A program made the translations under genes and the position numbers. This document shows, in pieces, positions 7,184-63,072 of a DNA stretch of 64,000 bases (position 1 is the first letter of the stretch; every line of letters starts with the position of its first letter). Source of the stretch: Laetmonice hystrix (Eukaryota); NCBI GenBank assembly GCA_965235115.1, contig OZ249436.1, positions 5,706,001 through 5,770,000 of the forward strand. The letters run 5' to 3'. Below the pieces are notes generated by a model. That model ran no database searches. It saw only the letters and a program-made list of their open reading frames with translations, and was not told the DNA's origin.

Positions 7184-9238
7184 GTGACGGTGATTTGAGT
7201 AAGGTAGAGTTGGACATGGTGGTGGAGGATTACGGGGATTCTCACCAACTTCGCTGTCACCACTGTTACCGTAGCGTGGACGGTGAGGCGTGTGTCAACC
7301 TTGAGTTCAGCAAGGTCGAGGTACAAGACTGCATGGTGGATGAGCCCTTCTGTCTGGTAAGACCACTGTCGGCTGTCATAATCCCATCACAAAATCGGGC
7401 GATTATTACACAATGGAATTTAACAGAGACTGATTTCTGTGTGGAGATTTAGTCGGAATGTTCTTCCCATGCTCACCAGCCGTAAGCCTCTGATGGAGTA
7501 GTTAATTTGATTGGTTAATTTCTACCGGAAACAGGCCCTGACACGTGATTGATTTTTTTCTCTCCATACACGGAGGTCCAAAAAGCGCTTTCCTCGTTTT
7601 ACATCCTGATATAAATGCTATATCTATTTTTCGAACCTTGTAGTAAATTTGAGTTTTCCCATCTGCTTATATTTTTGGCATCCTGCAGAAATTCCATGTT
7701 ATCTGCAAAGGTTACATGCAGGATCAATACAAGTGGGAGTACACTCCTCTGCTTTTTGGAATGTACATCATGTATAAATGTATACGAAATATAAAATACA
7801 TTACGTAATAGGATCCAAAAACAAAAAAGTTCTCTGAGATCCTTTCTTCCATCAATTTCGTATTCCATTCTCTATGCAATGTGTAAGCACTCAATCACAG
7901 GTTCTTTAATCAGTATCAAAACGAGGCCCGATAAGCTCCAATTTACCGCAGTTGTTATTTTATTACGCTTGGGACAGTTCAGGTGGCGACAGAAAATTAT
8001 CCCTCTCAAAATACCAATGAAGGCCTCGTCCTTCAGGGCAGCGGTCTCCGACGTGCTGCCAATTGAGTTTTCATTTACACGAACTTGATGTGATGGATCA
8101 TAGTTGGTATCAACGCCTTCAGCCCTCGTGTGTCCGGGCAGGCTCAATTCTGGCCGAATGTGTGGGCTGCTTAGGATATTAGCTTACGCAAGGCGTCAGG
8201 GAATTGGCAGGGCGAGGCCAAAGTGAATTTACCTTTGGCCCAATACGTTCTGAAAGGTATTGGACACAAATCCATACCGGAAGTGGTTCGAGCGAACTGG
8301 TGTGTCCAGAATATGAGGGCTGTAGTACGTTATTACCACCACCCGGCACTAACTGACTTACATCTCGTAAAATGTCATTTAGGTAATATCAATGACGAAG
8401 ACACGAACCTGTGCCAACAGCATACGTCACTAGCTGATGTAACACGATGCCATTATTTGTATTTCCAGGAAGAGCCCTATTTTGTAACAGGGTTTAGAAT
8501 CTTACAGTACCCACCATGTGGCTGATGAAAGTGGTCGTAAGGGCCGAAACTCCCCTATTCCTAAGTAATGTACCCTGCTGTGGGATAGAGTGGCCACAAG
8601 GACGAAGAGAACGCAGGTTCTGGATGCTCACAATCACAGTATCGGCGCTTACTGCCTTTTAATGAAGACACTGATGTATCAACTAATCCATATTTTGATA
8701 TGCATCCCCCATCTAAAGCACTGTTCTTCTTATTCCCAGTAATACGTATCGTATCCCTATGACCTTCTGATGGGGAAAGTCTCTCCTTTAAAAAAACTGA
8801 TTAAGTTCAGGATTATAGGCGTGACCTTTGTAAGTTTGTGGTTGTTAAATTCCTTATCAGGTACACTGCTTCTGTGACAACTTCCACTTATCTCTCAGTA
8901 ATGTGGTATTTCATGATGGTTGTTTTTAATATTCGCGCCTCTTTATTTGCAAACTACACTTCAAAATGGTTAATCATATCTTTCATTTTCCACAGGTGGA
9001 ACGTCTGATGACAAACAATGAGTTGACAACCTTTACACGCAGATGTTCGCGGGAATGTAAACAAGGATGTCAGTCAGTCGGAAACAACTATAAACTCGAA
9101 TACTGTTACAGTTGCTGCCAGACAGATTTCTGTAACGAAGACAATGGTGCAGCTAACTACGTTACTGTTCGGCTTCCAGCAGTGCTATTACTTACAGCGG
9201 CAGGCTATGCCATGTCCGCTTTCATTTCACTGGGATAA
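7184..9238 (+). CDS. GPI-anchored Ly6/uPAR three-finger protein (12-Cys LYPD6/quiver-like); signal-peptide exon not located
   Basis: Exon 7184-7356 (ttgcag| ... |gtaaga) encodes ..LRCHHCYRSVDGEACVNLEFSKVEVQDCMVDEPFCL. It joins in phase 0 to exon 8996-9238 (ccacag|) encoding VERLMTNNELTTFTRRCSRECKQGCQSVGNNYKLEYCYSCCQTDFCNEDNGA plus a hydrophobic tail and TAA. LxCxxC start, CCxxxxCN end and GPI-type tail are all present. Confidence 0.88.
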
Positions 9239-11246: not shown

Positions 11247-11442
11247 TGAGAACATCTTCACGGTAATCATGATTTTCTCCCCTCAAACTTTATTTGTAAA
11301 GAGGCTTACCCGAGATTCTCTTTGTCAGAAATAACTTACATAAAACATATCACAGGTGTTCCCGAAACGAGTTGCGAGTGGTTGGTCCCAAAATATGTGA
11401 TAAGGATCACTGTATCTGAGTGCTTATATATCATACGAGCTC

Positions 11443-11599: not shown

Positions 11600-12001
11600 A
11601 AGTGTCCCGTTACTGTCACAACGGCTCGTGTTTACAGGAATGACTCTCACACAAATAACTACATACCGTTATTTCTTTAGCTCTGAGATGACAGTTTCCA
11701 TGGAGATCTTGACATTTTATTATGTTTGTCCCATACACAGATTTAATGCATGGAAACAACACAGAGCATGAAGAAACCAGGTCAGGTGGGAGATTTGATT
11801 TTCTTGCCACAAAGCAGTAGGTATTTTTAAACGCCTGTGAGCTGGGGGACAACCAGGCCATCGCTCTTTTGCTCCTCCAAATCAGCCACCTATTTAATGA
11901 ATTTTTATATGTAGACTATGCACTTGTTTGAGCGTGCTTTGTGTATCGCGGAGTGAAGCCCTATCCTAGCCTTGGTCTCTCAATATACATGCTATTTGTT
12001 G

Positions 12002-12241
12002 TCAGTCTCTCAGAGACAGTACTGTCGCCACAAGAAGCATCTTCACGTACACCGGAAGAGACAATGTGTGTGTCGCAGCGTTGTCCGTGTTGCATGCTGG
12101 GGTCGAGCAGCAGGAAGTACAGCGCATGTGCGTCACACCAAAGTAGTTGAACTTGCAGCCATACCGACATTTGCCCTTCACCGCACAACCACGTTCAATA
12201 CTGAGCGTCGTCCCGAAACCGTAATAGTCCGTACGTTCAGT
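12002..12241 (-). CDS. Second (distal) alternative terminal exon of the minus-strand Ly6 gene
   Basis: Acceptor ctgttttcag| in phase 0. Translates TERTDYYGFGTTLSIERGCAVKGKCRYGCKFNYFGVTHMRCTSCCSTPACNTDNAATHTLSLPVYVKMLLVATVLSLRD*, with 7 conserved Cys, CCxxxxCN and a GPI-like tail. Not in the ORF track. Confidence 0.82.
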   Translation of the reverse strand, partial: TERTDYYGFGTTLSIERGCAVKGKCRYGCKFNYFGVTHMRCTSCCSTPACNTDNAATHTLSLPVYVKMLLVATVLSLRD

Positions 12242-12801
12242 CTGAAAACAGTCAATACACTGAGTACATCGAGACTGTCAGCGACTTAGTGTAGAAAAGG
12301 CTATTAATAAATCGTCTTACTTACCTTTGCTTGGCGTAGATTTATACCTGCCAGACTGACTTGATGCAATATTTGATTGCCTTCCAGAGATAGTGACTTG
12401 GTCGACTTTTGCGGTGAAAGTTCAAATTTCTATTAACTTTATTTTGGCGATTTCAACTAGATTAATAATGGTTCTTTTTCCTTGGGGCTGATACACCAAT
12501 ACAAGAAAGCGAAGGTCATCTAATATTCTTCGTCAGCCGAGATTCACAACATTTTGAGATCGGAAAGGTTTCTATAGATATAGCGGCACACGATTACGGA
12601 TCTTCCTCCTAGCGATTTAATTGGTACTACATGTCCATACCGGCTGGTACCCCACCCCCACTTCCGGTCACGTGCTAAAGGTTCACATAAAATGACGTGC
12701 AGGCACAAAACGGTCCGATTTCCATCAAAATGTGGTCTTAAATTGTATATACTCAAAGAGAAACAAAAGTAGAAAATACCCATGAAATCAAAATTCTATG
12801 T

Positions 12802-15800
12802 TCACAACTTCTTGAACGAAATTTGCAATGCGGTGAGAGCAGTAATAACTAGATATGTGAGTCTCGACTGTGTGCACGTGGTTGCAGTATTGTCAGTGTT
12901 GCAGAAGTCCTTGTTGCAGCAAGACATACATTTCATGTATGTCACGCCATATCCGTTGAACCGACATCCGTAGAGACAGTCGCTTGTACATCCACGTTCA
13001 ATGGATAACACTGCAGTCCACCCGTACAAATCCAAACGGTCAACCTGCCAACAAACAAATAATAACAAGGTTACTCGACTGCCGAACCGTCCTATTTGTC
13101 TACAATAAACTGCTAGCTTATCCATGATGTAAAAATTTGTAGATGTTGACTTTCCTTTATCCTCTGACTAATGTATAGATATTGCTGTTATTATTTGTTG
13201 ATTACACAGTTAACAGTTGCATTACGACGTCGGTATGGAATAAGGAATGCTGTTAACGTTATGTTTCTGGAGCAAGGAACTTCATGATGACAAATGAGTC
13301 TCAGGCAGCAGTAATCGAGACCCAGGTGGCGCCACCAGGCCGGACAGTAATTTACATAGCCTATCGTAGCGGAAATGGAGACAGGAGAGAGACGATAACA
13401 CCATAGATTGTACCAGTAATTAGGTTGGGTGGATTGGTATTTTCTCATCGCGAGGCTCACAAGGATGGCTACTATGACAACACAGGTTGATTTAAGCATT
13501 GGTAATTGGGAGAAAATAATTTACGGTCTACGCACTCATCTTACACATTACCCTAGACGTCGGTCGGGTTCCATGGAAAGTGCTTTTGGATGAAATGACA
13601 AGTATCCATATCGAATGAACCGTATTTTGTGTGAGAGTCACCATCTGTACAGCTACTCATGTGTGGAAGCCATATAGGCAAGAATATCTACGAATGTTAA
13701 TCCGAGTAAAGTTGTGTCGAGTTAAAAAGAGAAACAAATTAAAAACCATCTAAAAATAAGCGCAATATGATAAGGCCCCAGAGATTTCATTTTGGTGTAA
13801 CGAACTGGTGCTACTGGAGAGCGTATGAAAGGCTCGGTGATGAGGAAAACTCAGGTTTTGTATTGAGACACTGGCTGTAACCTATACTAGGAAGCGTATG
13901 AAAGGCTCGGTAATGATGGAAACTCAGGTTTTGTATTCAGACACTGGCTGTGACCTACACTGGGCAGCGTATGAAAGGCTCGGTAATGATGTAAACTCAG
14001 GTTTTGTATTCAGACACTGGCTGTGACCTACACTGGGCAGCGTACGAAAGGCTCGATAATGATGGAAACTCAGGTTTCGTATTCAGACACTGGCTGTAAC
14101 CTATACTGGGCAGCGTATGAAAGGCTCGGTGATGAGGAAAACTCAGGTTTTGTATTCAGACACTGGCTGTGACCTGTACGCACTATAGCCGCTGCCACAC
14201 AACATTTTAGAGGTATGTATAGAGATGGCGAGTAGATTTCTGGTGCTAACAAGCCGTTTTTGCTGCTGATTGTTCGGTGTGGGATTCCGTAGTATTTCTT
14301 TTAGATCAGGAAGCAGCGCGTCTCCCGGAGGACTCCGATAACCTGGATGATTCGACCCAGGCCCACTCTTTATCTTCGAGCCTCGCGTTCAGTCAAATAG
14401 AAACTAGATCCTGGCCGTCTCAAACACATCTACGCGGACAAAATGAACGTCTTTAAAAGATATCTCCTGTGTTTCTGTGTCGTATAGTCTACGTAACGAA
14501 GTAAGACACAGGGCCCAAGGATCTGCCCTATATAAATTAGCTTTGCCTTCAAAGCTTCATCCACATAAACAGAACACATAGCTTTAATCCAGCCTATTTG
14601 TATGTATACTTACCTATACCTACTTGCAGCCAAGCATCCATACACACATGCATTACTTACTTCGGTATGTGTGGAATATAGGTCTTGACCTCATAATACG
14701 TATTGACATCAAATCTACGTCAACGAAAACCCCACGCAAATAAAAAAAAACCCTTTCTGTCCGGTCCTTAGAACCTCTTTGAATAAATCCTCGGATTGCA
14801 AGAAGGTATTTATTTCGAAGTGGAAGCGAGAAAGGAGTTGAGTGTATCTTTATCCCCGAATCTTTCCAGAAGCCACGTCATCTTATGGCTTCCACAGTCC
14901 CACAACAATCCTTCATGGCTCTCCCGCCAGGGGGCGCTCTCCGTCTATGATTGAACCATGTGCGGACCCTATTGCACAGTTCAATGCATCACGACGCCCG
15001 GCCAGTCTGCCTGAATTCACGCCCAGGGGAGCGTCACTCCCCTATTTCTCGCCAGGATGTAGAAAAACGGGCACCCAAGATATCAATATGTCACTAGGCA
15101 TGAAGCTAAATCAAAGCACACTCTTGTGTTGTAATGTAGCGCTGAAAAAAGGCATAGGTTATGTAGGCCTAAATTGTACACGTGAGTTGAGCCTAAATTA
15201 GTTAGACAAGACAGTGCAAACCCTAGGGCAGCTCCCAGCTTCTCTCCTGCCTAAACAGGAGCGAAGCGGAGAATTACCCTTGGGTTTGCATTTGTCTAAC
15301 TAGGCCTAGATTTGATTTCTACATTTAGCATTTAAGTAGGTGCAAATTGTAGGCCTATAGGTTAGATATCACTATGTGGCGATTTAAGTATAAATGACCC
15401 ATAATACATGTATTATGGATGTATCTACTGGTAACCGCACATCCTACATAATAAAGAAGCTATACTAAAATTGTCTAAAGTGTTGGAAGGTGACTGCGTC
15501 AAGGGAAACATACATCGTGCATACAGACACACACACACTAAACACCAGATGGCGCGGGTGTAGGTGGTCCATCTCGGACGCCGAAGGGTGGTCCACAATT
15601 GGTGACAGATGGGTGGAGGTGTGGGTAAAGAAATGAAGAATTTAAACCGGGAGACCGGGGTGAGGTTGGTGACAGGACGGTCCTGCCATACTCACATGGT
15701 TCACGTGGTCGTGTGCTTGGAGGGCATGCACGCAGGGCAGGATGGCCGTCATGTTTAAATGACGTCGTTGGTATACATGCAGACACATGCATGCATGCTC

Positions 15801-17092
15801 CTTGGTCTAAAGAACACTGGTATGTTTTTTTACCCGTGTGGTCTATCCGTAAAGACACCACAGTATCACATAACAGACTACACACCATTCAAAGATAATT
15901 ATGAAACTCATTTTCATTAATTATAAACTTTGCTTTATCTATAACTATTAACTACTAACTATTAAAATCAAATATGTTTACCTAGGACTTCTCATGGGTT
16001 CACTGGTCAAATTTACACCGTATGTTAATATAAAGGAACTATATATTTCAGTGGGGGATTCGGGGGCCTAAGGGGCCCGGGCCCCCCTTAGATTTTCCTT
16101 CTTTTTTTTGTGGATGAATATGCATTAGTACAGTCAAAATCAAGAGCCGAGCATAGCGAGGCAAAAATTATTAGGTGGGCTCCCCTTATCAAAATCCTGG
16201 TGCCCCCCCCCCTAAACAAAAACCTGGATCCCCCATTGTATTTGGTATAGGAAAAGTAGGGGAACATGCAGTGCTCTGCATCCCCTCGATTCTATGGGCC
16301 TACGCTTTATATTGCCAGTGGTGCTGGCAGTTTTACTGATTTACCCAGAGAAGTCCCATGTATATAGGCCTATAACTTGGTTTATTATATAGGGCATATA
16401 CTGTTAATATCGACTATTGACTTCAGTTTTGGGGAAGCACTGTGGAGTTAACCTACTGTTGCATGTAATATTCTTCTATTTCAAAGTAACATAGCCCGAT
16501 CTTTTAACTATATAGCTACTTGTTGAATATTGTAGGCCGCTAATCTCATTTGACAAAAGTCGTTCAATAATTCAATGAAAAGCAATACACTGATCTCGCG
16601 GCCTGTTGCTTCTTTTCATCGGACTATGCAACTTTCAATTCCTATGGGAAAGCTACCTCATCATTCTAGATTATCCATTCCATTATAGAGATCAGGTTTG
16701 ATGGTAAATCTAGCATCATGCACAGATTGTAAAAGGACGTGCTTTAAAAGGGCTGAGATCAAATCGTGCTTCCCGTCGATGACCTAGAGCAGTGGTAACA
16801 TGCAGTAAGGGCCTCACCTTGCAGTACTTGTGCTGGGGCCCACACACCCGGATGCTGACCGTGGTGACGTTATTTTTACACGGAGATTTGAAGGGGTCGT
16901 ACGTGTTCTTGTAGGTTTCCTTACACTCGTAACAGCGGAGGAAGTTTGGGTGAACCTCAATGCCGACACCCTCTAGGTCCTTCTTCAGACTATCGGGAAC
17001 GGGAGCGTTGGTAGTCAGGTCAGAGGTCACCCCGGTCATCGTCGTGTTGTCCTCGACCGAGGCTGCTTCCAGATGGGGCACAGCCAAAAACA
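12802..17092 (-). CDS. GPI-anchored Ly6/uPAR three-finger protein (12-Cys LYPD6/quiver-like); first exon not located
   Basis: Exon 17092-16818 (tttgtgcag| ... TGCAAG|gtgagg) encodes FLAVPHLEAAS..PNFLRCYECKETYKNTYDPFKSPCKNNVTTVSIRVCGPQHKYCK. It joins in phase 0 to exon 13044-12802 (ttggcag|) encoding VDRLDLYGWTAVLSIERGCTSDCLYGCRFNGYGVTYMKCMSCCNKDFCNTDN plus a hydrophobic tail. Confidence 0.88.
13821..14175. repeat. 73-bp tandem repeat, about 5 copies (intronic)
   Basis: GCGTATGAAAGGCTCGGT(G/A)ATGA..AACTCAGGTTTTGTATTCAGACACTGGCTGT.ACCTA.ACT.GG.A starting at 13821, 13894, 13967, 14040 and 14113. Confidence 0.93.
15199..15302. mobile_element. Small foldback/MITE remnant
   Basis: TAGTTAGACAA..TGCAAACCC versus GGGTTTGCATTTGTCTAACTA inverted ends. 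Confidence 0.5.
16049..16238. mobile_element. MITE, 5-bp TSD
   Basis: CAGTGGGGGATT ... GATCCCCCATTG; perfect TSD TATTT (16044-16048, 16239-16243). Confidence 0.8.
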
Positions 17093-17396
17093 CTGCACAA
17101 AGACACAATAACTTAATAGATAGACCTCAAGTACATGTGATATTGTTATATTTTAACCAATCACTGTAGGGCATCAGGTCAGGACCTAACAGAAAATGTC
17201 TACCGGGACGTTCAGTATGTCATTCGATCGCCTTTGAGACAAATTTTCATTGGTTCAAAAGGCACTAGCTTGTCATAAAGGACATTCTAGGATTAATATT
17301 ATTTGGGGCTATGTCACATGCTTCTGTATAAGTTAGGTCGTATTTAACGGTCCGGAACACACGGGTGGGTAGATTACTGTAAAACGAACCAGAATA

Positions 17397-17706: not shown

Positions 17707-19565
17707 TTTTTTTTTTTTTTTTTTTAAACAAGATGATCTTTATTGAAGAAGATATACACAAGGCTATAAGCCTGTTTCCTGGTAAACCTCCTACAATAGT
17801 CACGCGTTTCCCTAATACCTTATCCTCGATACTATCTATTACATAGGTATGATAGAAGAGTGAGATGATAATGAGATGTGTGGGTGATTATAGCATCTGT
17901 ACAGGGGGGAAATGCCATGATACACATAAATTACATGTCAACTTAATAGGGCCAATACAGGGGACAAACATACACATTCCTTCAATCTACAATACAGTTC
18001 TTTGTTTTGGATTTAAAAAGTTTATATGATGCACATACTTGGTGTTCCATACTTAGGCTATTCCAAAGTTTAGAGCCTTTGTACACCAAGGAGTCTTTGA
18101 ACTTTTCTAAATTAGGTTTAGTCACTACCATGAGCTTTTTCCTATGCTCTCTAGTTATTAGGTTTCTATTGTCTATATAGTGGGGGTCCGATGATCTTTT
18201 AAACATAAAGTTCGCAAGATGCTGTTTTCTTCTAGTAATTAGCTTACAGAGATTTAACTTTTCATGCAATTCATCAGTGGAAAGATGTTTTTGGTTGACA
18301 CCAGCTATGCATCTAAGAGACCGATTTTGGATCCTTTGTAACTTATCGAGTTTGTTTTGTGAACATGCCTCATAGAAGATGTCTGCATAGTCAAAGTATG
18401 GTAAAATCATTGTTTTATAGACTCTTTCGGCAGCAGCCTGAGTTAACAGTCGACGTAGCCTAGTTAGCATAAATAGTTTGTGACTTATGGTTTTTACCAT
18501 ATTTTTAAGATGGTTTTCAAAATTAAGTGTGCTGTCAAGAGTAAGTCCCAGGTACTTATACGAGTCTACTATAGCGAGTCGCTCATTGCCTAATGTCAGA
18601 TTGATTGGCGGAAGCCTTTTCTTTCTTTGTTTAGTAGTGAAGATCATAGCTTTAGTTTTTTTAACATTGATCGTTAATTTATTCAGGTTGCACCAATGCA
18701 TTAAACGGTCAAGGTCATCTTGAAGGCTCTGAACCGCACAATATACATTACTGTGTTTTTGGTAGACAGTTGTGTCATCAGCATATAATTGCGAACGTCC
18801 GTTTTGAATACAGTCTGGTAAATCATTCACGTACAATAGAAAAATAGCGGACCGAGAACAGAGCCTTGGGGGACCCCAAACGTGATGTTTGCAGTATCTG
18901 ACATAACATTATTTGCCAAGGTCTGTTGTTTCCTGTTGGATAGATAGTTAGTTATTAGGTTAAGGTTTATATTCCTAATACCAAGTAAGTCTAGTTTCCT
19001 GAGAAGAATTTCGTGATCAACCGTATCAAAAGCTTTTTTAAAATCAATAAAGACTGCCACAGTAATTTCTTGATTATTCATAGCTTCGTATATGTCATCA
19101 GTTAAGTCCGCTATTTTTCTAGTGGTTGAAAAACCAGGCCTAAAACCACCTTGTTTTTCAGATATTAGGTTATTTTCTGTGAGAAAAAGCATTAAATTTG
19201 CATGGATTACCCTTTCTAACATCTTCCCTGGCAGAGGAAGTAACGAGATTGGCCTTAGGTTTCCCACATCCGACTTATCACCATCTTTTTGTAGTGGAAT
19301 GACTGTAGCAACCTTCCAGCTATCAGGAAATAATCCATGTGTAAGGCATAGATTGAACAAGTGTGTGAGTTGAGGTATTAGGATTAGGAATGCGGGTTTG
19401 ATAATTTTCGATGAAATGTTCTTAATAGCAGAGGATTTGTATATGTTAATTTCTTTAACTAGCTTCTTAACCTCCTCTTCAGTGGTAACCATAGTTGGCA
19501 GTTCTAGGTTTGACCTGACCATATCCGTATCCCAGGGTTCTCTGAAGTGCTGGGCAAGGGCAAGC
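17707..19565 (-). mobile_element. 5'-truncated non-LTR retrotransposon (CR1/L2-group LINE) with frameshifted reverse transcriptase
   Basis: RT motifs NLRPISLLPLPGKMLE, QGGFRPG, FIDFKKAFDTVDH, GVPQGSVLGPL, then after a frameshift near 18836 YVNDL, LYADDT, YKYLGL. It has a 3' UTR, AATAAA (tttatt at 17739-17744) and a poly(A) tail (T-run 17707-17725). No endonuclease or ORF1. Confidence 0.93.
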
Positions 19566-19958
19566 TGGGCTGGGCACAGTCTGCCTGATAAAACCCCAGA
19601 AAACCCCTGCGTAAGATTACAATGGTCAGCCCCTGTTTCTGTGAGTCGATTTACAAACCTCCCTTTAAAATCGGCACCAACCCGCTGATCATGTTGGCAC
19701 TTTAAGATTGCCATCATATTGTAAACAAATGGAATTGCCTTGGACCATTTCAAATAATGATGTTATAGAACGTGAGGACTGAGCAAGCCCGCCTCCCATT
19801 CCCGCCAGACATCGCGAGGATTGCATTCCCTGTGAAGCACGTCCTCGGAATTCTGAGGGAATTAGGCTATGGGATTCTAAACTGTCCTAACGAATTATAC
19901 TTGACCGGCCTTCGTATCCAAATTGTTTTCTAATACATAGAATATTATTCAAATATAG

Positions 19959-24099: not shown

Positions 24100-24557
24100 A
24101 GCGGTGTTTCCATTAACGCGGCTGCGTTCCGGCTGCGGTCCGGGCACGGGTACGGCTGATATCGCACGTCGTTGTTTTTAATGTAAGTGTTTCCATTAAT
24201 GCGATCTCCGTACGGGGCCCGTACGGGCGTCGCATGCGGCTGTTCCCGATCGCGTCATGGAGCGATTCGAGAACAGCCGCAGATGAGCCGCATGAGGGAT
24301 CCCCTTGATCCTAGGTGGTCACGTGCATGTTGTTCACTCAAAAAATGGATGACACCATGCCTCACGTTGTCAGCAAGCAAGATATCCAAAAACTTAACGA
24401 AAAACTTATCGATCCGGCAGGTGTACGGCCTATGACCTGATACCAACAACATTGAGACGCAGCCGGGACGCACCTTTAAAAACAACGACGTGTCTTATCA
24501 GCCGTACCCGTGCCCGCACCGCAGCCGGGCCGCAGCCGCGTTAATGGAAACACCGCT
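24100..24557. mobile_element. Harbinger-like MITE copy inserted in inverted orientation into its own family member
   Basis: About 80-bp TIRs AGCGGTGTTTCCATTAACGCGGCTGCG..; TAA on both sides. Confidence 0.85.
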
Positions 24558-24939
24558 TAAAGGTGCGTCCCGGCTGCGTCTCAATGTTGTTGGTATAAGG
24601 TCATAGGCCATACACCTGCCGAATCGATAAATTTTTCGTTAAGTTTTTCGATATCTTGCTTGCTGACCATGTGAGGCATGGTGTTATCCATTTTTTGAGT
24701 GAAGAACATGCACGTGAACACCTAGGATCAAGGGGATCCCTCATGCGGCTCATCTGCGGCTGTGCTCGAATCGCTCCATGACGCGATCGGGAAGAGCCGC
24801 ATGCGACGCCCGGACGGGCGCCGTACGGAGATCGCATTAATGGAAACACTTATATTAAAAACAACGACGTGCGATATCAGCCGTACCCGTGCCCGGACCG
24901 CAGCCGGGCCGCAGCCGCGTTAATGGAAACACCGCTTTA

Positions 24940-25396
24940 ACCGGTGTTTCCATTAACGCGGCTGCGGCCCGGCTGCGGTGCGGGCACTGTACGGCTGATA
25001 AGACACGTCGTTGTTTTTAAAGGTGCGTCCCGGCTGCGTCTCAATGTTGTTGGTATAAGGTCATAGGCCATACACCTGCCGAATCGATAAGTTTTTCGAT
25101 AAGTTTTTCGATATCTTCCTCGCTGACCACGTGAGGTATGGTGCCATCCATTTTTTAAGTGAAGAACATGTACGGAACCACCTAGGATCAAGGGGATCCC
25201 TCATGCGGCTCATCTGCGGCTGTGCTCGAATCGCTCCATGACGCGATCGGGAAGAGCCGCATCCGACGCCCGGACGGGCGCCGTACGGAGATCGCATTAA
25301 TGGAAACACTTACATTAAAAACAACGACGTGCGATATCAGCCGTACCCGTGCCCGGACCGCAGCCGGACCGCAGCCGCGTTAATGGAAACACCGCT
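24940..25396. mobile_element. Harbinger-like MITE copy (intact)
   Basis: Same about 457-bp element, flanked by TTA on both sides (24937-24939, 25397-25399). Confidence 0.85.
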
Positions 25397-25793
25397 TTAT
25401 ACTCCCTCGTCCGTGGATGTGTATGTACTGCGCCACGCCAAGTTTATGGTCTGACCTCGTCCACCCCCAATACCGGGGGTACCGTGTCGTAGGCCTACAT
25501 GTGTATACCTGGAGAAATGAATGAGAGAAAACCCCCCGAAACTCTAATGGTGCAGGCTTGGAGACGTGAAGGAGCTATGAAACAGGATTTGACATTATTC
25601 TGTTCGGCATTTACGGAAACTTTGATATGAAATGAATGCATGTACATGTATGCATATTTAATCATGTCCTGGCGTCAAGATTGATGTCTTGAAAGCAGAA
25701 ACGTTTGTGTGAAAAGGGACCGGATGTGGTTGAAGTAAGGCTACGAGCAGCCGCTTTGATAGTTCAGTGGGCGACCGGTCACCGTCACACACA

Positions 25794-26738
25794 GCCGGCT
25801 TTCCACGGTCCGGTTTTTAGTGATGCGGTTGCCGCGTGCGGTCAATCGGATGCGGCAACCGCATCAAAGTGTGTTTCCATGGTCCGGTCCGGTGGAGCGT
25901 TTTTGGCTATATTTAATTGACCAAATTCCTGTGTGACGCCACGTGTGACGTCACGTAATGTGATAATACACTGGGCTTTCCCTGACCTGAATTTTCACTG
26001 TAATTGCGGATTGCGAACTCTAAAGACCTTCTGATGACCTACAGGAGTCTGACACATGGAGGCGGCTGTGTTGTTATACTGCCGCCCGCGAAATGTGTCA
26101 GACTCCTGTGGATGACCCCATTAAATGACGTCACAGGGGAATTTCCTTGCGGCCAAACGCAGTCCGGACGGTCAAACCGGACCATGGAAATGACACAATG
26201 AATTAAGCGGTGTTTCCATTAACGCGGCTGCGGTCCGGCTGCGGTCCGGGCACGGGTACGGCTGATATGGCACGTCGTTGTTTTTAAAGGTGCGGCCCGG
26301 CTGCGTCCCAATGCTGTTAGTATAGAGTCATAGGACATCCACGTGCCGAATCGATAAGTTTTTCGTTAAGTTTTTCGATATCTTGCTTGCTGACCACGTG
26401 AGGCATGGTGCCATCCATTTTTTGAGTGGAGAACATGCACGGGAACACCTAGGATCAAGGGGATCCCTCATGCGGCTCATCTGCGGCTGTGCTCGAATCG
26501 CTCCATGACGCGATCGGGAACAGCCGCATGCGACACCCGTACGGGCCCCGTACGGAGATCGCATTAATGGAAACACTTACATTAAAAACAACGACGTGCG
26601 ATATCAGCCGTACCCGTGCCCGGACCGCAGCCGGACCGCAGCCGCGTTAATGGAAACACCGCTTAATACCGGTTGGAAAAAACGGGTCCGGCAACCGCAC
26701 CGGACCGGACGAAAAAAACGAACCATGGAAAGGCGGCC
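25794..26738. mobile_element. Degenerate TIR element hosting a further MITE copy
   Basis: GCCGGCTTTCCACGGTCCGGTTTTT at left versus AAAAACGAACCATGGAAAGGCGGCC at right; internal TTTCCATGGTCCGG repeats. Confidence 0.6.
26206..26663. mobile_element. Harbinger-like MITE copy (fourth copy)
   Basis: AGCGGTGTTTCCATTAACG ... CGTTAATGGAAACACCGCT; body highly similar to 24940-25396; flanks TTA/TAA. Confidence 0.85.
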
Positions 26739-29198: not shown

Positions 29199-30395
29199 GG
29201 ACTACATGACTGGGGGCGGGGTGTGGGTGGGACTACATGACTGGGGGTGTGGGTTAGTGGGGTGTGGGTGGGACTACATGACTGGGGGTGGGGGTTAGTG
29301 GGGTGTGGGTGGGACTACATGACTGGTGGTAGGGGTTAGTGGGGTGTGGATGGGACTACATGACTGGGGGTGGGGGTTAGTGGGGTGTGGGTGGGACTAC
29401 ATGACTGGGGGTGTGGGTTATTGGGGTGTGGGTGGGACTACATGACTGGAGTGGGGGTTAGTGGGGTGTGGATGGGACTACATGACTGGGGGTTAGTGGG
29501 GTGTGGGTGGGACTACATGACTGGTGGTAGGGGTTAGTGGGGTGTGGATGGGACTACATGACTGGGGTGGGGGTTAGTGGGGCGTGGGTGGGACTACATG
29601 ACTGGGGGTGGGGGTTAGTGGGGTGTGGATGGGACTACATGACTGGGGGTGGGGGTTAGTGGGGTGTGGGTGGGACTACATGACTCGGGGTGGGGGTTAG
29701 TGGGGTGTGGATGGGACTACATGACTGGGGGTGGGGGTTAGTGGGGTGTGGGTTGGACTACATGACTGGGGGTAGGGGTTAGTGGGGTGTGGGTGGGACT
29801 ACATGACTGGGGTGGGGGTTAGTGGGGTGTGGGTGGGACTACATGACTGGGGTGGGGGTTAGTGGGGTGTGGGTGGGACTACATGACTGGGGGTGGGGGT
29901 TAGTGGGGTGTGGGTGGGACTACATGACTGGGGTGGGGGTTAGTGGGGTGTGGGTGGGACTACATGACTGGTGGTAGGGGTTAGTGGGGTGTGGATGGGA
30001 CTACATGACTGGGGTGGGGGTTAGTGGGGTGTGGGTGGGACTACATGACTGGGGTGGGGGTTAGTGGGGTGTGGGTGGGACTACATGACTGGGGGTGGGG
30101 GTTAGTGGGGTGTGGATGGGACTACATGACTGGGGGTGGGGGTTAGTGGGGTGTGGGTGGGACTACATGACTGGGGTGGGGGTTAGTGGGGTGTGGGTGG
30201 GACTACATGACTGGTGGTAGGGGTTAGTGGGGTGTCGATGGGACTACATGACTGGGGTGGGGGTTAGTGGGGTGTGGGTGGGACTACATGACTGGGGTGG
30301 GGGTTAGTGGGGTGTGGGTGGGACTACATGACTGGGGTGGGGGTTAGTGGGGTGTGGGTGGGACTACATGACTGGGGGTGGGGGTTAGTGGGGTT
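29199..30395. repeat. About 41-bp G-rich minisatellite, about 29 copies
   Basis: GGACTACATGACTGGGG(G)TGGGGGTTAGTGGGGTGTGG(G/A)TG repeated. Confidence 0.96.
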
Positions 30396-30397
30396 AT

Positions 30398-31791
30398 GCT
30401 GCAAGGTGTGGGTGTGGGGTGTGGATGGGTGTCTTGCAGGGTGTGGGGTGTGGGGTGTGGGTGGGTGTCTTGCAGGGTGTGGGGTGTGGGTGTGGGGTGT
30501 GGGTGGGTGTCCTGCAGGGTGTGGGGTGTGGGTGTGGGTCCTGCAAGGTGTGGGGTGTGGGTGTGGGGTGTGGGTGGGTGTCCTGCAGTGTGTGGGTGTG
30601 GGGTGTGGGGTGTGGGGTGTGGGTGGGTGTCCTGCAGGGTGTGGGGTGTGGGTGTGGGTCCTGCAAGGTGTGGGGTGTGGGTGTGGGGTGTGGGTGGGTG
30701 TCCTGCAGGGTGTGGGGTGGGGTGGGGATGGGGGTCCTGCAAGGTGTGGGGTGTGGGTGTGGGGTGTGGGTGGGTGTCCTGCAGGGAGTGGGGTGTGGGG
30801 TGTGGGTGGGTGTCCTGCAGGGTGTGGGTGTGGGTCCTGCAAGGTGTGGGGTGTGGGTGTGGGTGTGGGGTGTGGGTGGGTGTCCCGCAGCGTGTGGGGT
30901 GGGGTGGGGATGGGGGTCCTGCAAGGTGTGGGGTGTGGGTGTGGGGTGTGGGTGGGTGTCCTGCAGGGAGTGGGGTGTGGGGTGTGGGTGGGTGTCCTGC
31001 AGGGTGTGGGGTGTGGGTGTGGGTGTGGGTCCTGCAAGGTGTGGGGTGTGGGTGTGGGTGTGGGTGTGGGGTGTGGGTGGGTGTCCCGCAGCGTGTGGGG
31101 TGGGGTGGGGATGGGGGTCCTGCAAGGTGTGGGGTGTGGGTGTGGGGTGTGGGTGGGTGTCCTGCAGGGTGTGAAGTGTGGGTGGGGGTATGGGTGGGTG
31201 TCCTGCAAGGTGTGGGGTGTGGGTGTGGGGTGTGGGTGGGTGTCCCGCAGTGTGTGGGGTGGGGTGGGGATGGGTGTCCTGCAAGGTGTGGGGTGTGGGT
31301 GTGGGGTGTGGGTGGGTGTCCTGCAGGGTGTGAAGTGTGGGTGGGGGTATGGGTGGGTGTCCTGCAAGGTGTGAAGTGTGGGTGGGGGTATGGGTGGGTG
31401 TCCTGCAAGGTGTGGGGTGTGGGTGTGGGGTGTGGGTGGGTGTCCTGCAGGGTGTGGGGTGGGGTGGGGATGGGGGTCCTGCAAGGTGTGGGGTGTGGGT
31501 GTGGGGTATGGGTGGGTGTCCTGCAGGGAGTGGGGTGTGGGGTGTGGGTGGGTGTCCTGCAGGGTGTGGGGTGTGGGTGTGGGTGTGTGTCCTGCAGGGT
31601 GTGGGGTGTGGGTGTGGGTCCTGCAAGGTGTGGGGTGTGGGTGTGGGTGTGGGTTGTGGGTGGGTGTCCCGCAGCGTGTGGGGTGGGGTGGGGATGGGGG
31701 TCCTGCAAGGTGTGGGGTGTGGGGGGGGGGTGTCCTGCAGGGTGTGAAGTGTGGGTGGGGGTATGGGTGGGTGTCCTGCAAGGTGTAGGGT
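30398..31791. repeat. Variable-length GT-rich minisatellite punctuated by TCCTGCA(A/G)GG
   Basis: TCCTGCARGG followed by variable numbers of TGTGGG(G) units. Confidence 0.95.
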
Positions 31792-33099
31792 GTTAATGTG
31801 ATGCTTAACGAGTAACATGGTGATTAACGTGATTATTATGAGGATTAATGTGATGCTTAACGAGTAACGTGAGGATTATTGTGAGGATGGCGATGAAGAT
31901 GGTGATGTCAAATGTACTGATATTTCATGATATCTGTACTGTAGTTAACTTTCTGTTATTCAATAAATGATCAGTACGTTGTAACCCACAAATTTGTCCT
32001 AGAAATTGACCTTTGACTTTGACCGAGCCTCTCACAATATCCCAGTTTTGGGCCATTTGTGGCCTTGACCTTGACATTTGACCTTAACTTTAATGTCGAC
32101 TCACAAGACGTATGCCACAATTGGATTGCCTGCCTCTATATTGTAAGGAAACACTCCATTAAATGTGATTTTAGGCCAACTGTCCTGGAAACCCCAGTTT
32201 TTTTGCCATTTTTGGCCTTGACCTTGATATTTGACCTTGACCTTGACCTTGAATCACAAAACAAATGTCAAAAATGGATTCCCCGTGTTGATATTGTGTG
32301 GAAAAGTGCTATTACATATGATTCTAGGCCAAATGGTTTTCAAGTTACCTGAGCTTATGCCGATTTGTTATTAATTATGCTAATTTATGCAAATTAGCTT
32401 ATAAAAAAAATTCCTCAACAGCCAACTTCTGCCAACAAAGCTGAAAATCTTCACAGAGCCTATGTGGACACAAATCAATCATAATCTCTTGCGGGTCTAA
32501 AAATTTCCGGGTTACCTGGGTTGGCTACCCGACTACTAGACCTTCGTCATGTCTCGGCTTGAAGCGCACAGCGAACGGCTGTTTTCTCCGGTAGATGGCA
32601 CTTGTAACAGCAACCAGAACATACAAGTGAGATAATGACTGATCCCGTCGACAGGTAGCTTGTCATATTTCCCGCCCACCTGTAATAAAACGAATATTTA
32701 AACTGTAATGTTTTAGAACACATGGCGAAAGGATAAAATTTCTAAAATAAGAGGAGTGATTTTATATTTAAAAGCACCATTCTTGTGGAAGAATACATAG
32801 TTTGAGGAATCTACGAACATCTCTATGAGTACGAGATGACGACGAACTAAGATGGCTGCACCCTAGTGCAAGGTTCGATCTGAGAATAACCCGACATAAT
32901 ATTGTCGTTGGGACTGCATTCTGCTTTGCCGTGTTCTGGACATTGATACATTTTTGGTAAGCCATGTATATATGTAATGACTGTGAAGTTGATGTGAGTA
33001 TAAGGAGTTTGGGAAACTAACCGACGGCGTGGTTTTAGGCCTGTAATATTCCGTGTATTTGAATGGGGGACCGGGGGAAGGAAGTGGACGGGCCCGGCC

Positions 33100-33280
33100 G
33101 CCTCGTGAATAACACGTCACGAGTGCCATCGAGCTAGCGACAAGCCATTCCGTGATACGCCCATAGACGGCACACTGTGATCCTTAAATAATGTTTGGAT
33201 CAAAATGTTCTAGTTATCAACTATTGACAGTCGTGTTCAGCCTTCTCTCTTAGCCGATAGACGATCGCCGGGGATAGGTT
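33100..33280 (+). promoter_or_regulatory. Probable Erlin promoter / non-coding first exon
   Basis: Locally CpG-rich stretch; candidate donor ATAG|GTTTGG near 33278; acceptor tacttcag| at 33845, just upstream of the ATG; TGACGTG (reverse strand) at 33113-33119. Confidence 0.35.
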
Positions 33281-33869
33281 TGGGTGCAGTCATGTCATGG
33301 CCATTGCATTGGCTATTGACTGTTGATAGACCTTACTATTCTAATCTAAGACTAAGCTGTGGCTGTGCCGAGCCTAACTGAGCCGTGTCGTGACTAACCA
33401 AAGACCATTGCCCCTGCAGGAAGTTACTGCAGCCAACTGTGCATGACCTAATCTTTATTTGAGAAAGTCTATAAAGATCTTTCTGTCTGACATTGCATTA
33501 TTAATATATTGTTTTATAATGTGATTTCCCGATTTGCCACATTGGCTTAAAAATAAGGATTGGGGGGAAATCAACTTTTTCTCTCTCTTGGAATCCAAAA
33601 TAGGCTATATATGCTGCCCCCCCCTTCAAAAAAAGACAACCTCAAGCGTCCACTGGCCTCTGTGGCCCAAAGCTAAATTCCTTTTCCTGATTTTCGGTTT
33701 CCTGAGTTGGGGCAATTGCCCCTGCCCCCATTCCCAGACCTATGAATATAACTGATAAATAATTGGGGGGGGGGGGGGGGGGGGGGGTGAGAGACATGCA
33801 TACCTTGACTGGTGCCATAATGATTGTAATATTCTATACTTCAGATAAAAACCTTGAAGCAGTCTGACC

Positions 33870-36800
33870 ATGCCTCCAGCCATCACCTTTGCTGCTGTTG
33901 CCATTGGTTTTCTGGCCATTTTCCTTAACTTCTCTGTTCACAAGATAGAGGAGGGACATGTTGGGGTCTATTACAGGGTAAGTACTGACATTGATAGTGC
34001 TGCTACTATCATCTTGGAGCACTCAGATACATAATGATTGATCAAAAAATGTATTGATACAGCAAGCCTCACAGTTTATTTTTGAACCAGGGAAACTTTC
34101 AATTTTGAAAAGAACATTTGTGGATGGTGGAGAGGGATGGTGGCAGAAAAAGTCAGTTTGACGAACCTGGAAAACGTGTTTACATTTGACCCCTGAAAAT
34201 TAACATTTTAAGTGTTAAGATTTCGTTTTTCCAAGACAAATGGTCAATTAGTGATGATCACCACTGCTCTGTTTTAGGGAGGTGCCCTGTTGTCCAGGAC
34301 AAATGGTCCAGGTTATCACATGATGATTCCGGTAATCACGACATACCGTTCTGTTCAGACAACACTACAAACAGATGAAGTGAAAAATGTTCCATGTGGA
34401 ACAAGGTAGGCTCATAGTTATGTTTCAAGCATTTGTCTGGGATCTGGATGGAAGGGTTGAAGAACAGTCCAAAAACCAAAACATAGGTGTCTCGATGTAA
34501 ATCCATTTCTTGTACAAATTAATTGGTCATTTGATGACAGCAACGCTATTGCTAGTGTTACTCTATCAACCATTACTTCATGACATACTGGCATACCATG
34601 TGTTATAATGCTCTTTTCCTTAAAAACCCTACGGCAGTAACTTCTGGGCCTGTTTTACTAAGGTGTCTATAATAATGACGTCGTTAATTTAACGTAGAAG
34701 TGAATGGGTTGCAAACGGGCCCCTCATGCATTATCAGCTGTGCATTATATCCAATATTCTCTTTCCATTTCAGTGGTGGTGTTATGATCTATTTCGATAG
34801 GATTGAAGTGGTCAATGTACTGTCACAGTCCTCGGGTATGTTTAAATATTTACAATGATCTACTTTATATCTGTTCTCTAGGCCCAGGATATATGTGGAG
34901 AAGTAATTCTTGTATCTTAACATTTGTTATTCCTGGGTAGTTGTGTTCTGTGGTCATTATTTCAGTACACATACCTGCCATATTTTATTAATTGTCACTT
35001 TGATAGCTTAGGCTGTAAAAATAAATATCTGAAGACTGAACTTTCCAGCCTGTCAGATGCGTCCTGATCAGGAACTTATATTGAGATGTTCAAAGATGGT
35101 TTTATTGAGTTGAATGTTGATTAGGATCAGTATGTTCTGTAAAAGGTTCTGTTTTGTTTTCCAGTTTATGATGTAGTTAAAAACTACACGGCAGATTATG
35201 ACAAGGCCCTCATCTACAACAAGGTCCACCATGAACTCAACCAGTTCTGTAGTGTTCACAACCTACAGGAGGTCTACATTGACCTCTTTGGTATGTGTTT
35301 CTCATGTAAAATCTTTAAAGCTATTAAAAGCTGCACTTGATGTTTATCAGGAATGTTCAACAATGAGATGCCGAAAAGAAAAAATAGAATCTCCATTTGT
35401 GGAATTGGGGAATAAAGACAATATCATCTCCAAATTTAACAGGCAGCAACCAGAGAAGAACAATCTGTCCCATCACCCTTACCTGACAGTGTTATGGTAA
35501 TTAATGTTCTGACTGCCTATAAATGGCAGGTAGTTCCAACCCAGTCCATTCTTTCACAGTCACATCTGCAGAGATACTTGGGTGTACGTTTATTTAAAGA
35601 ATTCACAATAAATATCTCTTGACCCAAAAATATTCACAAAGAGATTTTACACTACTTCGGTTGAATATGATCAGTTTTATTTTGTTGTTACTTGTTACAG
35701 ATAAGATTGATGAGAACCTGAAGAGTGCATTGCAAGTAGACCTAAATATTATGGCACCAGGGCTTTTCGTTCAAGCTGTTAGGGTCACCAAGCCCAAGAT
35801 TCCAGAACAGATCCGGAAAAACTATGAAATCATGTGAGTTGGCTAGAAACCTATTTCTTCTAAACCATGCATGCAACATCTAACTTCTAACATCATATTT
35901 TAATTTTATTTAAAAGGAGTTATTTCACTTAGTCTGTGTGTGACGTCAGAGACAATTTTGATTAAGGTAACTTAATTTTTATAGCATCGAACTACAGCAA
36001 TGTAAAAAGAGGGCTTGATATACTTTATAAATGCTTTTACATTTGGTAATATTGTCCCAAAATATGTGTACATGGTGAGCAATAACAATATGGGATGTGT
36101 TTTTTGGCTTACAGGGAAGGTGAAAAGACGAAGCTGATGATAGTACAGGAGAAGCAAAAGGTTGTGGAGAAGGAAGCTGAGACTGATAGAAAAAGAGCAA
36201 TCATTGGTAGGATTTTCTCATGATTATGCAACTTGTATTGACTTCATGTCTCAGTGTTTTGGAAAACATCAGATTTTGATGGAAAGATGTCGTATTTGAT
36301 GGCTAATGGTGCCTCCTGATATCAAATGTAAACTAAATGGCAGTAATTGATATTATGACTAGGAAATGCAGAAATCTTCTGCAAAGTCTTCCTTTGCTAT
36401 TAACTTAATAACAGAAAATATTGAGATTTGAACAATGAGACAACTGTCAGAAAAAGTTTTAGAGTTCTGTTATTGAGGATCATTGAAAGGAATCTAATAT
36501 AAACGTGACCATGACCATCACTGTCTGTTATTTCAGAGGCCAAAAAAATTGCTGAAGTGGCAAAAATTCAGTGGGATCAAAAGATTATGGAGAAGGAATC
36601 TGAGCGGAAGATCGCTGAGATTGAAGGTTTGTAAATTATAGTTAACACTTTTTAAAAAGTAGTTAATCTAAATGCTAATGTCCAGAATAGGACACTAGAT
36701 GACGAACACTCCTTTTTCCAGTCCCGAAGTTACACAGCACAATAGTAAAGTTTCCTTACGGAACCCTGCAATGAAAGGGACAACTTTTATCAGTCCCAAA

Positions 36801-37667
36801 GGTGTGTCCAACTTGGAGGCTGTACTGCACAGTATTTAGAAAGTGCTACTTGATATCAGATAGTTATGAATTTGAATCTTGAATCTATGAAAGCATAAAA
36901 CTAAGTAATTTTCTTTCTAATTGCTTTCTGGTTTTCAGATCAAACCCATTTAGCAAGAGAAAAAGCTAAAGCTGATGCAGAATTCTACAAAACGGAGAAG
37001 ATTGCAGATGCCAACAAAGTAGGTACACATAAGGGAAGTGGCGGTGGCCGAGTGGGCATGGGCGTCGATACCTTATGCTATGCGAATGGGTGCAGTAATC
37101 TTGCGGCCGGGGTTCGATTCCACTAGAGGACTACAACTTTTCTCTTTCCGGACATTCTCAAAGTAACTGGGTTACGCCTGATGCCCGTGCATTTAAAAAT
37201 GAAAAATGTGTGAATGATGAGTAGGGCTCGATGAGGGAGGATCCAGTTCAATTTATAATGAAAAACACTATAGACTGCAATGATCTGTCAGCTAATCAAC
37301 TATGAATAATCACAGATGATGTTTTTGTCATAAAAGAAAATTATCTGATTTTAATCTCGTATACATGCAAGGAGTTTGCAATGGTGAATGGAAACAATTG
37401 AATAGATTTTCGAGTGAATATATTATGATATGATAATGTATCAATTCTCTTGTGTTACAGTTACTTTTGACGCCTGAGTACATTGAACTTCGTAAATATG
37501 AGGCCATCAGTGCAAACAACAAGGTTTACTTCGGCGCTAATATCCCCAACATGTTTGTTGATAACAACTTGATATCAGCTGGAAAAGCAACTTCAGTACC
37601 ATCATCATCTTCGAGTTTTTCATCTTCAACTCAGTCCAAAGATAAAAAGGTAGACATGCAAGGCTGA
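33870..37667 (+). CDS. ERLIN: Erlin (ER lipid raft-associated SPFH protein; ERLIN1/2 co-ortholog), 341 aa, 9 coding exons
   Basis: Exons 33870-33977, 34278-34405, 34774-34835, 35165-35290, 35701-35833, 36115-36206, 36537-36626, 36939-37018 and 37461-37667; all GT-AG, frame preserved (1026 nt). Diagnostic peptides [84 protein letters not shown]. Confidence 0.97.
37036..37130 (+). mobile_element. tRNA-derived SINE head / tRNA pseudogene in the last Erlin intron
   Basis: Pol III A-box TGGCCGAGTGG (37045-37055) and B-box GGTTCGATTCC (37111-37121); acceptor and T stems do not pair, so not a functional tRNA. Confidence 0.6.
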
Positions 37668-42060: not shown

Positions 42061-43425
42061 CAAAGCAAGCAGTAAACGTTGGTTCACAGAGATGAACACT
42101 GTTTTCTTGGGTTCATTATGTGGAGCCAGAGAAATGTATGCCACAGGTTAAAGCTTTTCAATTAGCCAATGAATGAATTGGAACATGTCGACGTTGTTCC
42201 TTTCATTACATGGACACAGATGTCAATAAACATAAATGCTAATTGTGCTGGTAACCTTAGACCCACTGATAGGAGTACTAGTGTTACTCCTAACAGTTGC
42301 AAACAGATAGCACTTTCTATGGCCAGTATGGGTAGCACTTATATAAATGAAGAGAGGTACATAATACAGAACAACTTCAATATGAGCTGTTAGCAAAAAA
42401 GCTTTCAACTTAAGTAGGACAACACTGGCAGTTTATTGACATAGAGAACATGCCAGTTTATTGACATACAGTACCTCAGGTTAGCAATGCCTTATCTTAC
42501 ATGTAGCACTTGATATCTTTTGTTATGACGTAATATTGCCTTCATGACAAATCTTATCATATGTACTGGTTCATATCTTTGGTAACATAACATAATGGGA
42601 TATTTGTCGCGTAAACACTAATTCAATAAATTATAGCTGAGTATAAATAATTTGTAGATATCAAAGTGTTAACCAGGGTATTTTGATTATCTTTAGTTAT
42701 TATTAATTAGATTCATCATAATCCAATCCTGTTTATGTTTGTCAGCTGTGAGTCGTTGCCCTCACCATGGTGGGGTGGCAGCATTATTCACTGGGTATAT
42801 CAGATGACCTATATTTTTAACCTATAGTTTTAGCCTATAGTTTTCTTTGAATGGGATGGGAGGCCTGGCATTTATTGATGCCTCAAAGGGAAAGGTTCTA
42901 ATTCGGGGGCAAACAAAGTGATTGAGACTTATTTATGTTATTGAATAGTTATTGCTGGGAACATCGTTTTGTCAAATTTTGACAAAACGTTTTAGATGTC
43001 CACAGACCTCAGTGCGTGGTGAACTCTGGGAGAGATTGGGTATGAAGTAGCACTAGCTGGATCCATGCACACCAAAACTCAAAATGGAACAGTCTGCAGG
43101 ACTGTGTTATATAATATGAGCTTTTGGTTAACGTAATCGTAACTTTAATATGCCTACTCATTATTTTGTCCTTTATTCTCAGGGCCACCAGAAATTCTGG
43201 CAGGCAACCTTTTTTGAACACTAGATAATAGGTTTATTTATCTGACAGTCTTGAAATAAGTTCCCCGAAGTAAAAATTCTGTTGGTATGATGGTATTGTT
43301 TGTAATTTACTAAAGAAACGTCCAGAAATTTTGTCAAACTATTGAGGCTTTCTCTGACAGATTTGCTTTATTTTCATGTTTCAGAAAAATGTCATCGTGA
43401 TTTGATGCCTTCCATCTAACCACCA

Positions 43426-44958: not shown

Positions 44959-45050
44959 GTAGGCACCAGTTTTGATCTGTTATAATTAAATATTAGCTTT
45001 TGGGACCTGTAAATGGAAAATTCATAATTAATGCAGCTTCTTGCCACTAG

Positions 45051-48837: not shown

Positions 48838-49185
48838 TAGATAACATCCCCACTGACTCCTGCCGGCTATGGTGAGTGACCTTTCCGAAGTGTTGATTAG
48901 ACTGACGATAATCATCAGAAGAGGCATTGTTAGTGAAGAGGTTCACCGTTCTTGAGGGGAAATTAGCTCAGTGATGATATCTTCACAGCGTCACCTGGTG
49001 TCGTGAGGTCTTGGTTAATGTGTGGTTTGGGAACCTGACCAAGGACGAAGCAGCTGCCCATACATTTACATACATTGTATTGCTTCGACGCAGAGAACAA
49101 ACCGTTGTAGCCCATTTCTATGACGTTTTATAATGATGTAGTGAAGGACATGGAGAAAGTCCAAGGACTGTATCTTAATTTGTGT

Positions 49186-63000: not shown

Positions 63001-63072
63001 AGCCACAGAGCTCACACAGGTTGAGGGTCGCTGTCATTGATATCACCCAGCCACAGAGCTCACATAGGTTGA
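60045..63072. repeat. 48/27-bp minisatellite, about 3 kb
   Basis: ATCACCCAGCCACAGAGCTCACACAGGTTGAGGGTC(A/G)CTGTCATTGAT interspersed with a 27-bp deletion variant. Confidence 0.97.

Follow-up and report, generated by a model that had tools for sequence, protein, structure and literature searches.

A 64,000-nt stretch of the Laetmonice hystrix genome (assembly GCA_965235115.1, contig OZ249436.1, positions 5,706,001 to 5,770,000; the whole stretch is referred to as the window, and coordinates count from its first nucleotide) carries on its minus strand a Ly6 gene in which a tandem pair of homologous last exons lies downstream of one front-half exon. The shared exon (16818..17092) encodes the end of a probable signal peptide, a Thr/Ser-rich spacer and cysteines 1 to 5 of the Ly6/uPAR (LU) domain, corresponding to finger I and the base of finger II. 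It is entered in phase 1 and left in phase 0, with an AG directly upstream of position 17092 and a GT donor at its 3′ end (AAG followed by GTGAGG), and its N-terminal part contains a hydrophobic run and a site that could plausibly be cleaved. The sequence taken as the intron end upstream of it (17093-17126, minus strand) is open in frame for 12 further codons, which are signal-peptide-like and lack an ATG; the true acceptor could be farther upstream, or this stretch could just be a T-rich tract.

Both last exons, the proximal exon A (12802..13044, minus strand) and the distal exon B (12002..12241, minus strand), are preceded by CAG, are open in phase 0 to a TGA and contain seven cysteines each, giving 5 + 7 cysteines with either. 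Exon A encodes finger II, finger III with an extra cysteine pair, the CCxxxxCN motif and a hydrophobic tail of the glycosylphosphatidylinositol (GPI) type, and B has the same layout, except that the spacing between Cys6 and Cys7 is five residues versus three in A. Re-reading and translating the minus strand reproduced the coordinates, frames, splice dinucleotides, translations and cysteine counts of an earlier sequence-only reading. The two-residue indel that it had assigned to a loop is real, but sits between Cys6 and Cys7, in the linker of fingers II and III; the larger difference lies in the 22 of 52 aligned LU residues that are not shared. The likeness of A and B is far beyond chance (tblastn E 5e-20, 57% identity over 56 columns). 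Their C-terminal tails of 32 and 29 residues have small residues after the CN and a 12-residue hydrophobic run (Kyte-Doolittle 2.0 and 2.2), from which GPI anchoring of both products is predicted.

The predicted product is an uncharacterised spiralian 12-cysteine Ly6/uPAR protein, with LYPD6 and LYPD6B as its nearest matches among solved structures. A search of 1.84 billion representative sequences with exon A gave 75 matches, and among the 21 that were looked up, the named ones or their cluster members came from Owenia, Capitella (two genes), Lamellibrachia, Ridgeia and Tubulanus. A profile search retrieved 25 proteins, mostly from molluscs, annelids, a brachiopod and a nemertean, named as uncharacterised, hypothetical, or LU or toxin-like domain proteins. 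The best matches of the shared exon are also annelid, with 56% identity to residues 51-95 of Capitella ELT89557. When a 55-row family profile was compared with solved structures, LYPD6B and LYPD6 scored best (E 6e-4 to 2e-3), and the cysteines aligned to cysteines with LYPD6B; an earlier profile of 18 rows had matched no solved structure. The ten-cysteine LU pattern ending in CCxxxxCN is present with either last exon, and both last exons carry the extra loop-3 cysteine pair at LYPD6-aligned positions. Pfam searches, run on half-domains only, gave 20.5 bits for B against UPAR_LY6_2 (cut-off 31.5) and no match for A. At E 0.01 or better, Toxin_TOLIP was matched by 18 of the 55 aligned family members and QVR by only six. 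An atlas search gave only leads below 0.9 for the shared exon and LU-clan neighbours for exon B.

The fold was read on a stand-in relative, P0031 (predicted local distance difference test score 88, predicted template modelling score (pTM) 0.72), after a first model of the Capitella protein P0011 (18 rows; pTM 0.41) had proved poor and was discarded. The P0031 model is three-fingered, with strands 46-54 and 57-66 forming finger II, and its Foldseek matches are headed by Lynx1 (E 3.3e-4), the top ones all being LU or three-finger chains. The exon boundary maps to residue 48/49, near the start of the strand (46-54) that rises in finger II. Thus, the last exon would encode almost the whole of finger II, together with finger III, the CCxxxxCN loop and the anchor signal, and the proposal of a shared finger I with different fingers II and III holds in this model, with the boundary at the base of finger II. 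Many of the open reading frame (ORF) matches in genomic sequence emerge from an intron at the same position, just after Cys5, and this phase-0 intron appears to be a family trait.

With the shared exon as query, the whole L. hystrix genome (627 Mb, 35 contigs) yielded a single match (two candidates scored). Exon A gave three (four scored), namely A itself, B and the last exon of a divergent paralogue on the plus strand (7184-7356 and 8996-9238), and exon B gave these three local exons plus four rows at E 0.5 or worse. The paralogue has the same 12-cysteine layout and the same phase-1 and phase-0 introns, and forms a convergent, tail-to-tail pair with the minus-strand gene; the two are the only clear subfamily members that the genome searches revealed. 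No first exon of the paralogue was located. Three full-length relatives used as queries each recovered the same four exons (the shared exon, A, B and the last exon of the paralogue), and the only extra rows, at E 0.95 and E 0.21, both contain stops. Compared with longer proteins, the shared exon matched none of the 26 candidates scored.

The window itself was scanned in two further ways. A hidden Markov model (HMM) of the first half, built from 20 of 89 proteins and run on 3286 six-frame pieces, scored the shared exon at E 8.2e-15 and no other piece below 0.6. In the HMM scoring of the last exons, the values were E 7.6e-23 (A) and 4.9e-18 (B). A scan for the cysteine pattern plus a donor gave six matches in the 64 kb, comprising the front half of the divergent paralogue, four in a plus-strand GT-rich repeat, and the shared exon as the sole match on the minus strand. 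Between A and B (560 nt), reading of three frames, the HMM and the pattern scan found no front half with the cysteine pattern, in agreement with the sequence-only reading, and no open frame with a cysteine or a start codon leads into the B acceptor. Separate first exons for B, which would have spoken for a second gene, were looked for by sequence in genome and window, and none were detected. Because these searches yield a single front half of the subfamily, exon B is, within their sensitivity, without a detectable front half of its own.

Comparison of the two last exons suggests that both have been maintained for a long time. Over 52 aligned LU codons, 30 residues are identical, 13 of them with different codons. 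The synonymous divergence (dS) is 1.58, which is near saturation, and the nonsynonymous divergence (dN) 0.43, a ratio of about 0.27. In upstream intron and 3′ flank (300 nt of each), the likeness of A and B is at the level of shuffled sequence. The single match obtained from 23 candidates for exon B, P0001 from another genome, is an exon of the B type that agrees with B in acceptor position and also has the two-residue insertion. It is identical to B at 45 of 54 positions in the LU part and at 7 of 25 in the tail, indicating that the LU part of B stayed constrained. Exon A shares 37 of 51 LU residues with each of P0002 and P0003. B and P0001 are grouped with support of 99/97 in a tree of 53 rows and 99/95 in one of 24 rows, and A groups with other foreign exons, less firmly. 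An exclusive clade of A and B was rejected (approximately unbiased test, p-AU 3.9e-5, 24 rows), in a test that used 54 columns only and a group named after the first tree was seen. Based on the tree, the duplication predates the split from the species of P0001. Thus, the duplication looks old and both copies look selected; the pair may stem either from duplication of the exon alone or from that of a whole gene, one copy of which later lost its 5′ half.

Allelic variation was read from three runs of genomic contigs of one sample, one of which may be the source of the window itself, over 11610-13800, a region outside the shared exon. All three are unspliced and free of joints or loose ends, and two of them carry A and B on one piece. 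The 19 substitutions in 2191 nt are consistent with one second haplotype. Five of the changes fall in exon B, of which four are silent and one replaces Leu by Val in the tail (P 0.014-0.027 according to the transition bias assumed); exon A has none versus 2.0 expected (P 0.14), which is uninformative. A haplotype mis-join or a recent duplication as the source of the pair was ruled out by the dS of 1.6, the unrelated flanks and the presence of A and B on single contigs. A metagenome scan with exon B left two loci of 167 pattern matches, both of them chance motif matches in unrelated sequence.

Candidate poly(A) hexamers follow both last exons on the minus strand. An AATAAA at 12438..12443 could serve isoform A, and an ATTAAA lies at 12616-12621, also downstream of A. 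For isoform B there is an AATAAA at 11716..11721 and a second candidate at 11289..11294; of six hexamers examined, the latter is followed by the stretch richest in T/G. The region downstream of A also contains a near-consensus 5′ splice site (12319..12326, minus strand), 83 nt upstream of the B acceptor, with a score of 8.8 versus 6.6 for the donor of the shared exon. This site is in phase 0 with B and unchanged in the contigs of the other haplotype, and the open stretch preceding it lacks a cysteine or a start codon. It could splice read-through A transcripts onto B; it may also be there by chance, its 8-mer occurring four times in the window versus 2.3 expected. Neither this site nor the plus-strand paralogue is mentioned in the sequence-only reading.

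With a single front half and two last exons that are both intact and conserved, one gene with two last exons is the best reading of the locus, and we consider it likely that this gene uses A and B as alternative last exons set by alternative polyadenylation. The mechanism is suggested by the papers that define this class, which assign terminal homologous exons to alternative poly(A) use and not to strict mutually exclusive splicing (PMC3228551, PMC8373072). The strict class consists of internal exons with common downstream exons, and A and B are both terminal. Of the mutually exclusive terminal exons with two isoforms proposed in the sequence-only reading, the two interchangeable last exons thus stand as a prediction, whereas strict mutual exclusion does not.

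In the proposed model, an old tandem duplication would have left two copies of the last coding exon in one gene for a GPI-anchored, single-domain, 12-cysteine Ly6/uPAR protein. On one route, the shared exon would be spliced to A (16818-13044) and the transcript would end between A and B; on the other, A would be skipped, the shared exon spliced to B (16818-12241) and the transcript ended beyond B. The choice would be a competition of the A acceptor and its poly(A) site with the B acceptor. The predicted isoforms have finger I in common. Finger III and the anchor signal would be exchanged completely and finger II almost so, and the isoforms would most likely differ in membrane partner or binding strength, probably in different cell types. 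A two-domain read-through protein was excluded, as exon A closes with a stop codon and B amounts to only half a domain, and so was B as part of the plus-strand paralogue, which lies on the opposite strand.

Several observations weigh against one gene with alternative last exons. No exon could be identified for the start codon and most of the signal peptide: a strict scan gave three candidates and a relaxed scan 202 phase-1 donors, none of them convincing. The first-half HMM scored the front half of the plus-strand paralogue at E 1.7 only, which marks its sensitivity limit, so that a very divergent second front half could escape homology searches. The AATAAA noted earlier after each exon is indeed present, but counts for little as evidence, since the hexamers are at chance level (0.36-0.38 expected per 560 nt) and the proximal one lacks a clear U/GU-rich downstream element. 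In Capitella, two related last exons lie in two separate complete genes, each with its own front half. Finally, amino-acid changes between the alleles of B are not depleted relative to the flanking non-coding rate (one seen, 1.5 expected), whereas its silent changes (12064-12212) number four versus 0.5 expected from that rate (P 0.0014), pointing to a locally deep allele split. The polymorphism signal thus reflects an excess of silent changes rather than a depletion of amino-acid changes, and rests on five sites.

We regard it as improbable that only one of the last exons is used now and that the other is a recent, undecayed remnant, functional in ancestors and perhaps derived from a separate tandem gene with lost 5′ exons. 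The tree does not separate exon duplication from whole-gene duplication with 5′ loss, Capitella has two complete genes of such a type, and the missing allelic changes in A do not inform on this point. However, both frames, all seven cysteines, the acceptors and the tails are intact in both exons though the flanks have lost all likeness, the alleles of B are biased to silent changes, and neither the HMM nor the pattern scan of the window shows a trace of a decayed second front half. Less probable still is that B is reached mostly by read-through, in transcripts that join the shared exon to A, run past the proximal poly(A) site and then splice from the donor at 12325 to the B acceptor. B would then lie in the 3′ untranslated region of an A-coding, possibly decay-prone message, and its protein rare or absent. 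An untranslated region would not retain 45 of 54 residues in common with a foreign orthologue while the tail drifts, and the recurrence of the donor 8-mer in the window is also unfavourable to this route, which draws instead on the closeness of that donor to the consensus and to B, and on the weak proximal hexamer. Read-through and alternative last exons can coexist.

The lowest probability goes to B belonging, as last exon, to a gene of its own, with 5′ exons that have diverged beyond detection, interleave with the A gene or are added by trans-splicing. The sensitivity limit of the HMM leaves room for this, and LYNX1/SLURP2, first thought to be isoforms and later recognised as separate units (PMC4839075), provides a precedent. 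Yet the gap between A and B holds no open frame with a cysteine or start codon into the B acceptor, the pattern scan recovers a front half as divergent as that of the paralogue and, on the minus strand of the 64-kb window, none besides the shared exon, and in family members close to B the front halves are readily picked up.

Elsewhere in the window, minisatellite arrays occupy 1265-2761, 13812-14179, 29218-31793, 49182-51563, 56120-57207 and 60044-63072 (units of 71, 73, 41, 55, 73 and 48 nt, respectively); the array at 13812-14179 consists of five copies and lies within the intron preceding exon A. A MITE-like element (miniature inverted-repeat transposable element) of ∼400 nt was recognised by eye at 24100-26700, where nested direct and inverted copies have GC-rich terminal inverted repeats. 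The minus strand of 17710-19762 carries, in two frames, what we take from familiar motifs to be a reverse-transcriptase fragment like that of a long interspersed nuclear element. Its 3′ end shows an AATAAA and a poly(A) run; it has the same orientation as the Ly6 gene, lies ∼600 nt upstream of the shared exon and could truncate transcripts. On the plus strand, exons at about 33100-37660, presumably of an ERLIN/SPFH-domain gene judging from their motifs, stand head to head with the upstream region of the Ly6 gene. A 521-codon open frame at 43420-44985 (plus strand) has YGR/YTR-type motifs and matches no Pfam family; we assume a resemblance to the N-terminal exon of WAPL.

Among proteins of known structure, LYPD6 and LYPD6B (PDB 6gbi, 6ib6, 6zso) have the extra loop-3 cysteine pair in common with exons A and B (PMC6600238). 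Their five-residue Cys6-Cys7 spacing is shared by exon B and found in only 3 of 83 family rows. Their identity to the protein described here is low, the likeness being one of profiles, and the trees contained no vertebrate sequences. To our knowledge, no duplicated last exon has been described in LYPD6 or LYPD6B. The spiralian 12-cysteine Ly6 proteins (Capitella ELU09984 and ELT89557, Owenia CAH1793617, Ridgeia KAK2177026, and members from molluscs, a brachiopod and a nemertean) show the same cysteine skeleton, and genomic ORF matches indicate the same phase-0 intron just after Cys5. Judging by names and sequences, a pair with one front half and two back halves is not evident among the 25 proteins of the profile search. 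Capitella has diversified by whole-gene copies, in contrast to the duplicated last exon here.

The typical three-exon LU gene has a signal exon and two LU exons, with the anchor signal in the last (PMC6600238, PMC4839075), a layout that the L. hystrix gene probably shares. Its intron lies at the tip of loop 2 (PMC6600238), whereas the phase-0 intron here lies at the base of finger II, so that a swap would exchange almost the whole finger. Drosophila QUIVER/SLEEPLESS (QVR/SSS) and mammalian LYNX1 are GPI-anchored three-finger proteins, an architecture also predicted here; in them loop 2 carries target binding, and QVR/SSS needs loop 2 for both of its targets (PMC4735452). Because of this requirement, different fingers II and III would probably result in different partners or affinities; nicotinic receptors or K channels are suggested as partners by analogy only.

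Duplicated last exons are well known outside this family. In a human catalogue, 77 of 236 substitutions derived from tandem exon duplication are C-terminal (PMC8373072), and CAPZB is an example (PMC3228551). Like these human cases, A and B are homologous tandem last exons on one strand, in the same phase, with their own stops, and both old and conserved, and upstream exons are unduplicated here within search sensitivity. In contrast to them, the gene described here is an invertebrate Ly6 gene known from genomic sequence, and the swap would cover more than half of a small disulfide-locked domain. “Ly6” is absent from the main text of the catalogue, whose supplement, outside that check, could list a Ly6 case (PMC8373072), and the available text of a 2026 survey of invertebrate LU proteins contains none of “exon”, “splic” or “isoform” (PMC13719153). 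A search of titles and abstract openings, with most subscription journals outside its coverage, found no published duplicated last exon in a Ly6 gene. Of the idea that the split-domain scheme is unusual for the family, the lack of a Ly6 case within these sources holds up, while the scheme itself has been catalogued before (PMC8373072, PMC3228551). The architecture is thus already known as a class, and it is the Ly6 instance for which no published case was found.

Ly6 families are described as diversifying via whole-gene duplication (PMC6600238). If both junctions are real, the L. hystrix gene would diversify by exon choice, swapping the very loop that binds targets in QVR/SSS. As a mechanism, however, exon choice is ordinary, and it opens no long-standing question to testing. 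A more far-reaching version, which we consider unlikely, is a lineage-wide, regulated specificity switch, in which one promoter and one finger I would be kept and finger II, finger III and the anchor exchanged by cell type, addressing two classes of receptors or channels, with the strong donor before B coupling the choice to message decay. Such a switch would amount to a natural finger-swap experiment on the LU scaffold and, as far as the literature searched reaches, to the first described duplicated last exon in a Ly6 gene. If alternative use of A and B is true, gene counts of invertebrate Ly6 proteins can miss products, and the two isoforms would be a ready pair to test fingers II and III on a constant finger I, in a spiralian subfamily without a described function.

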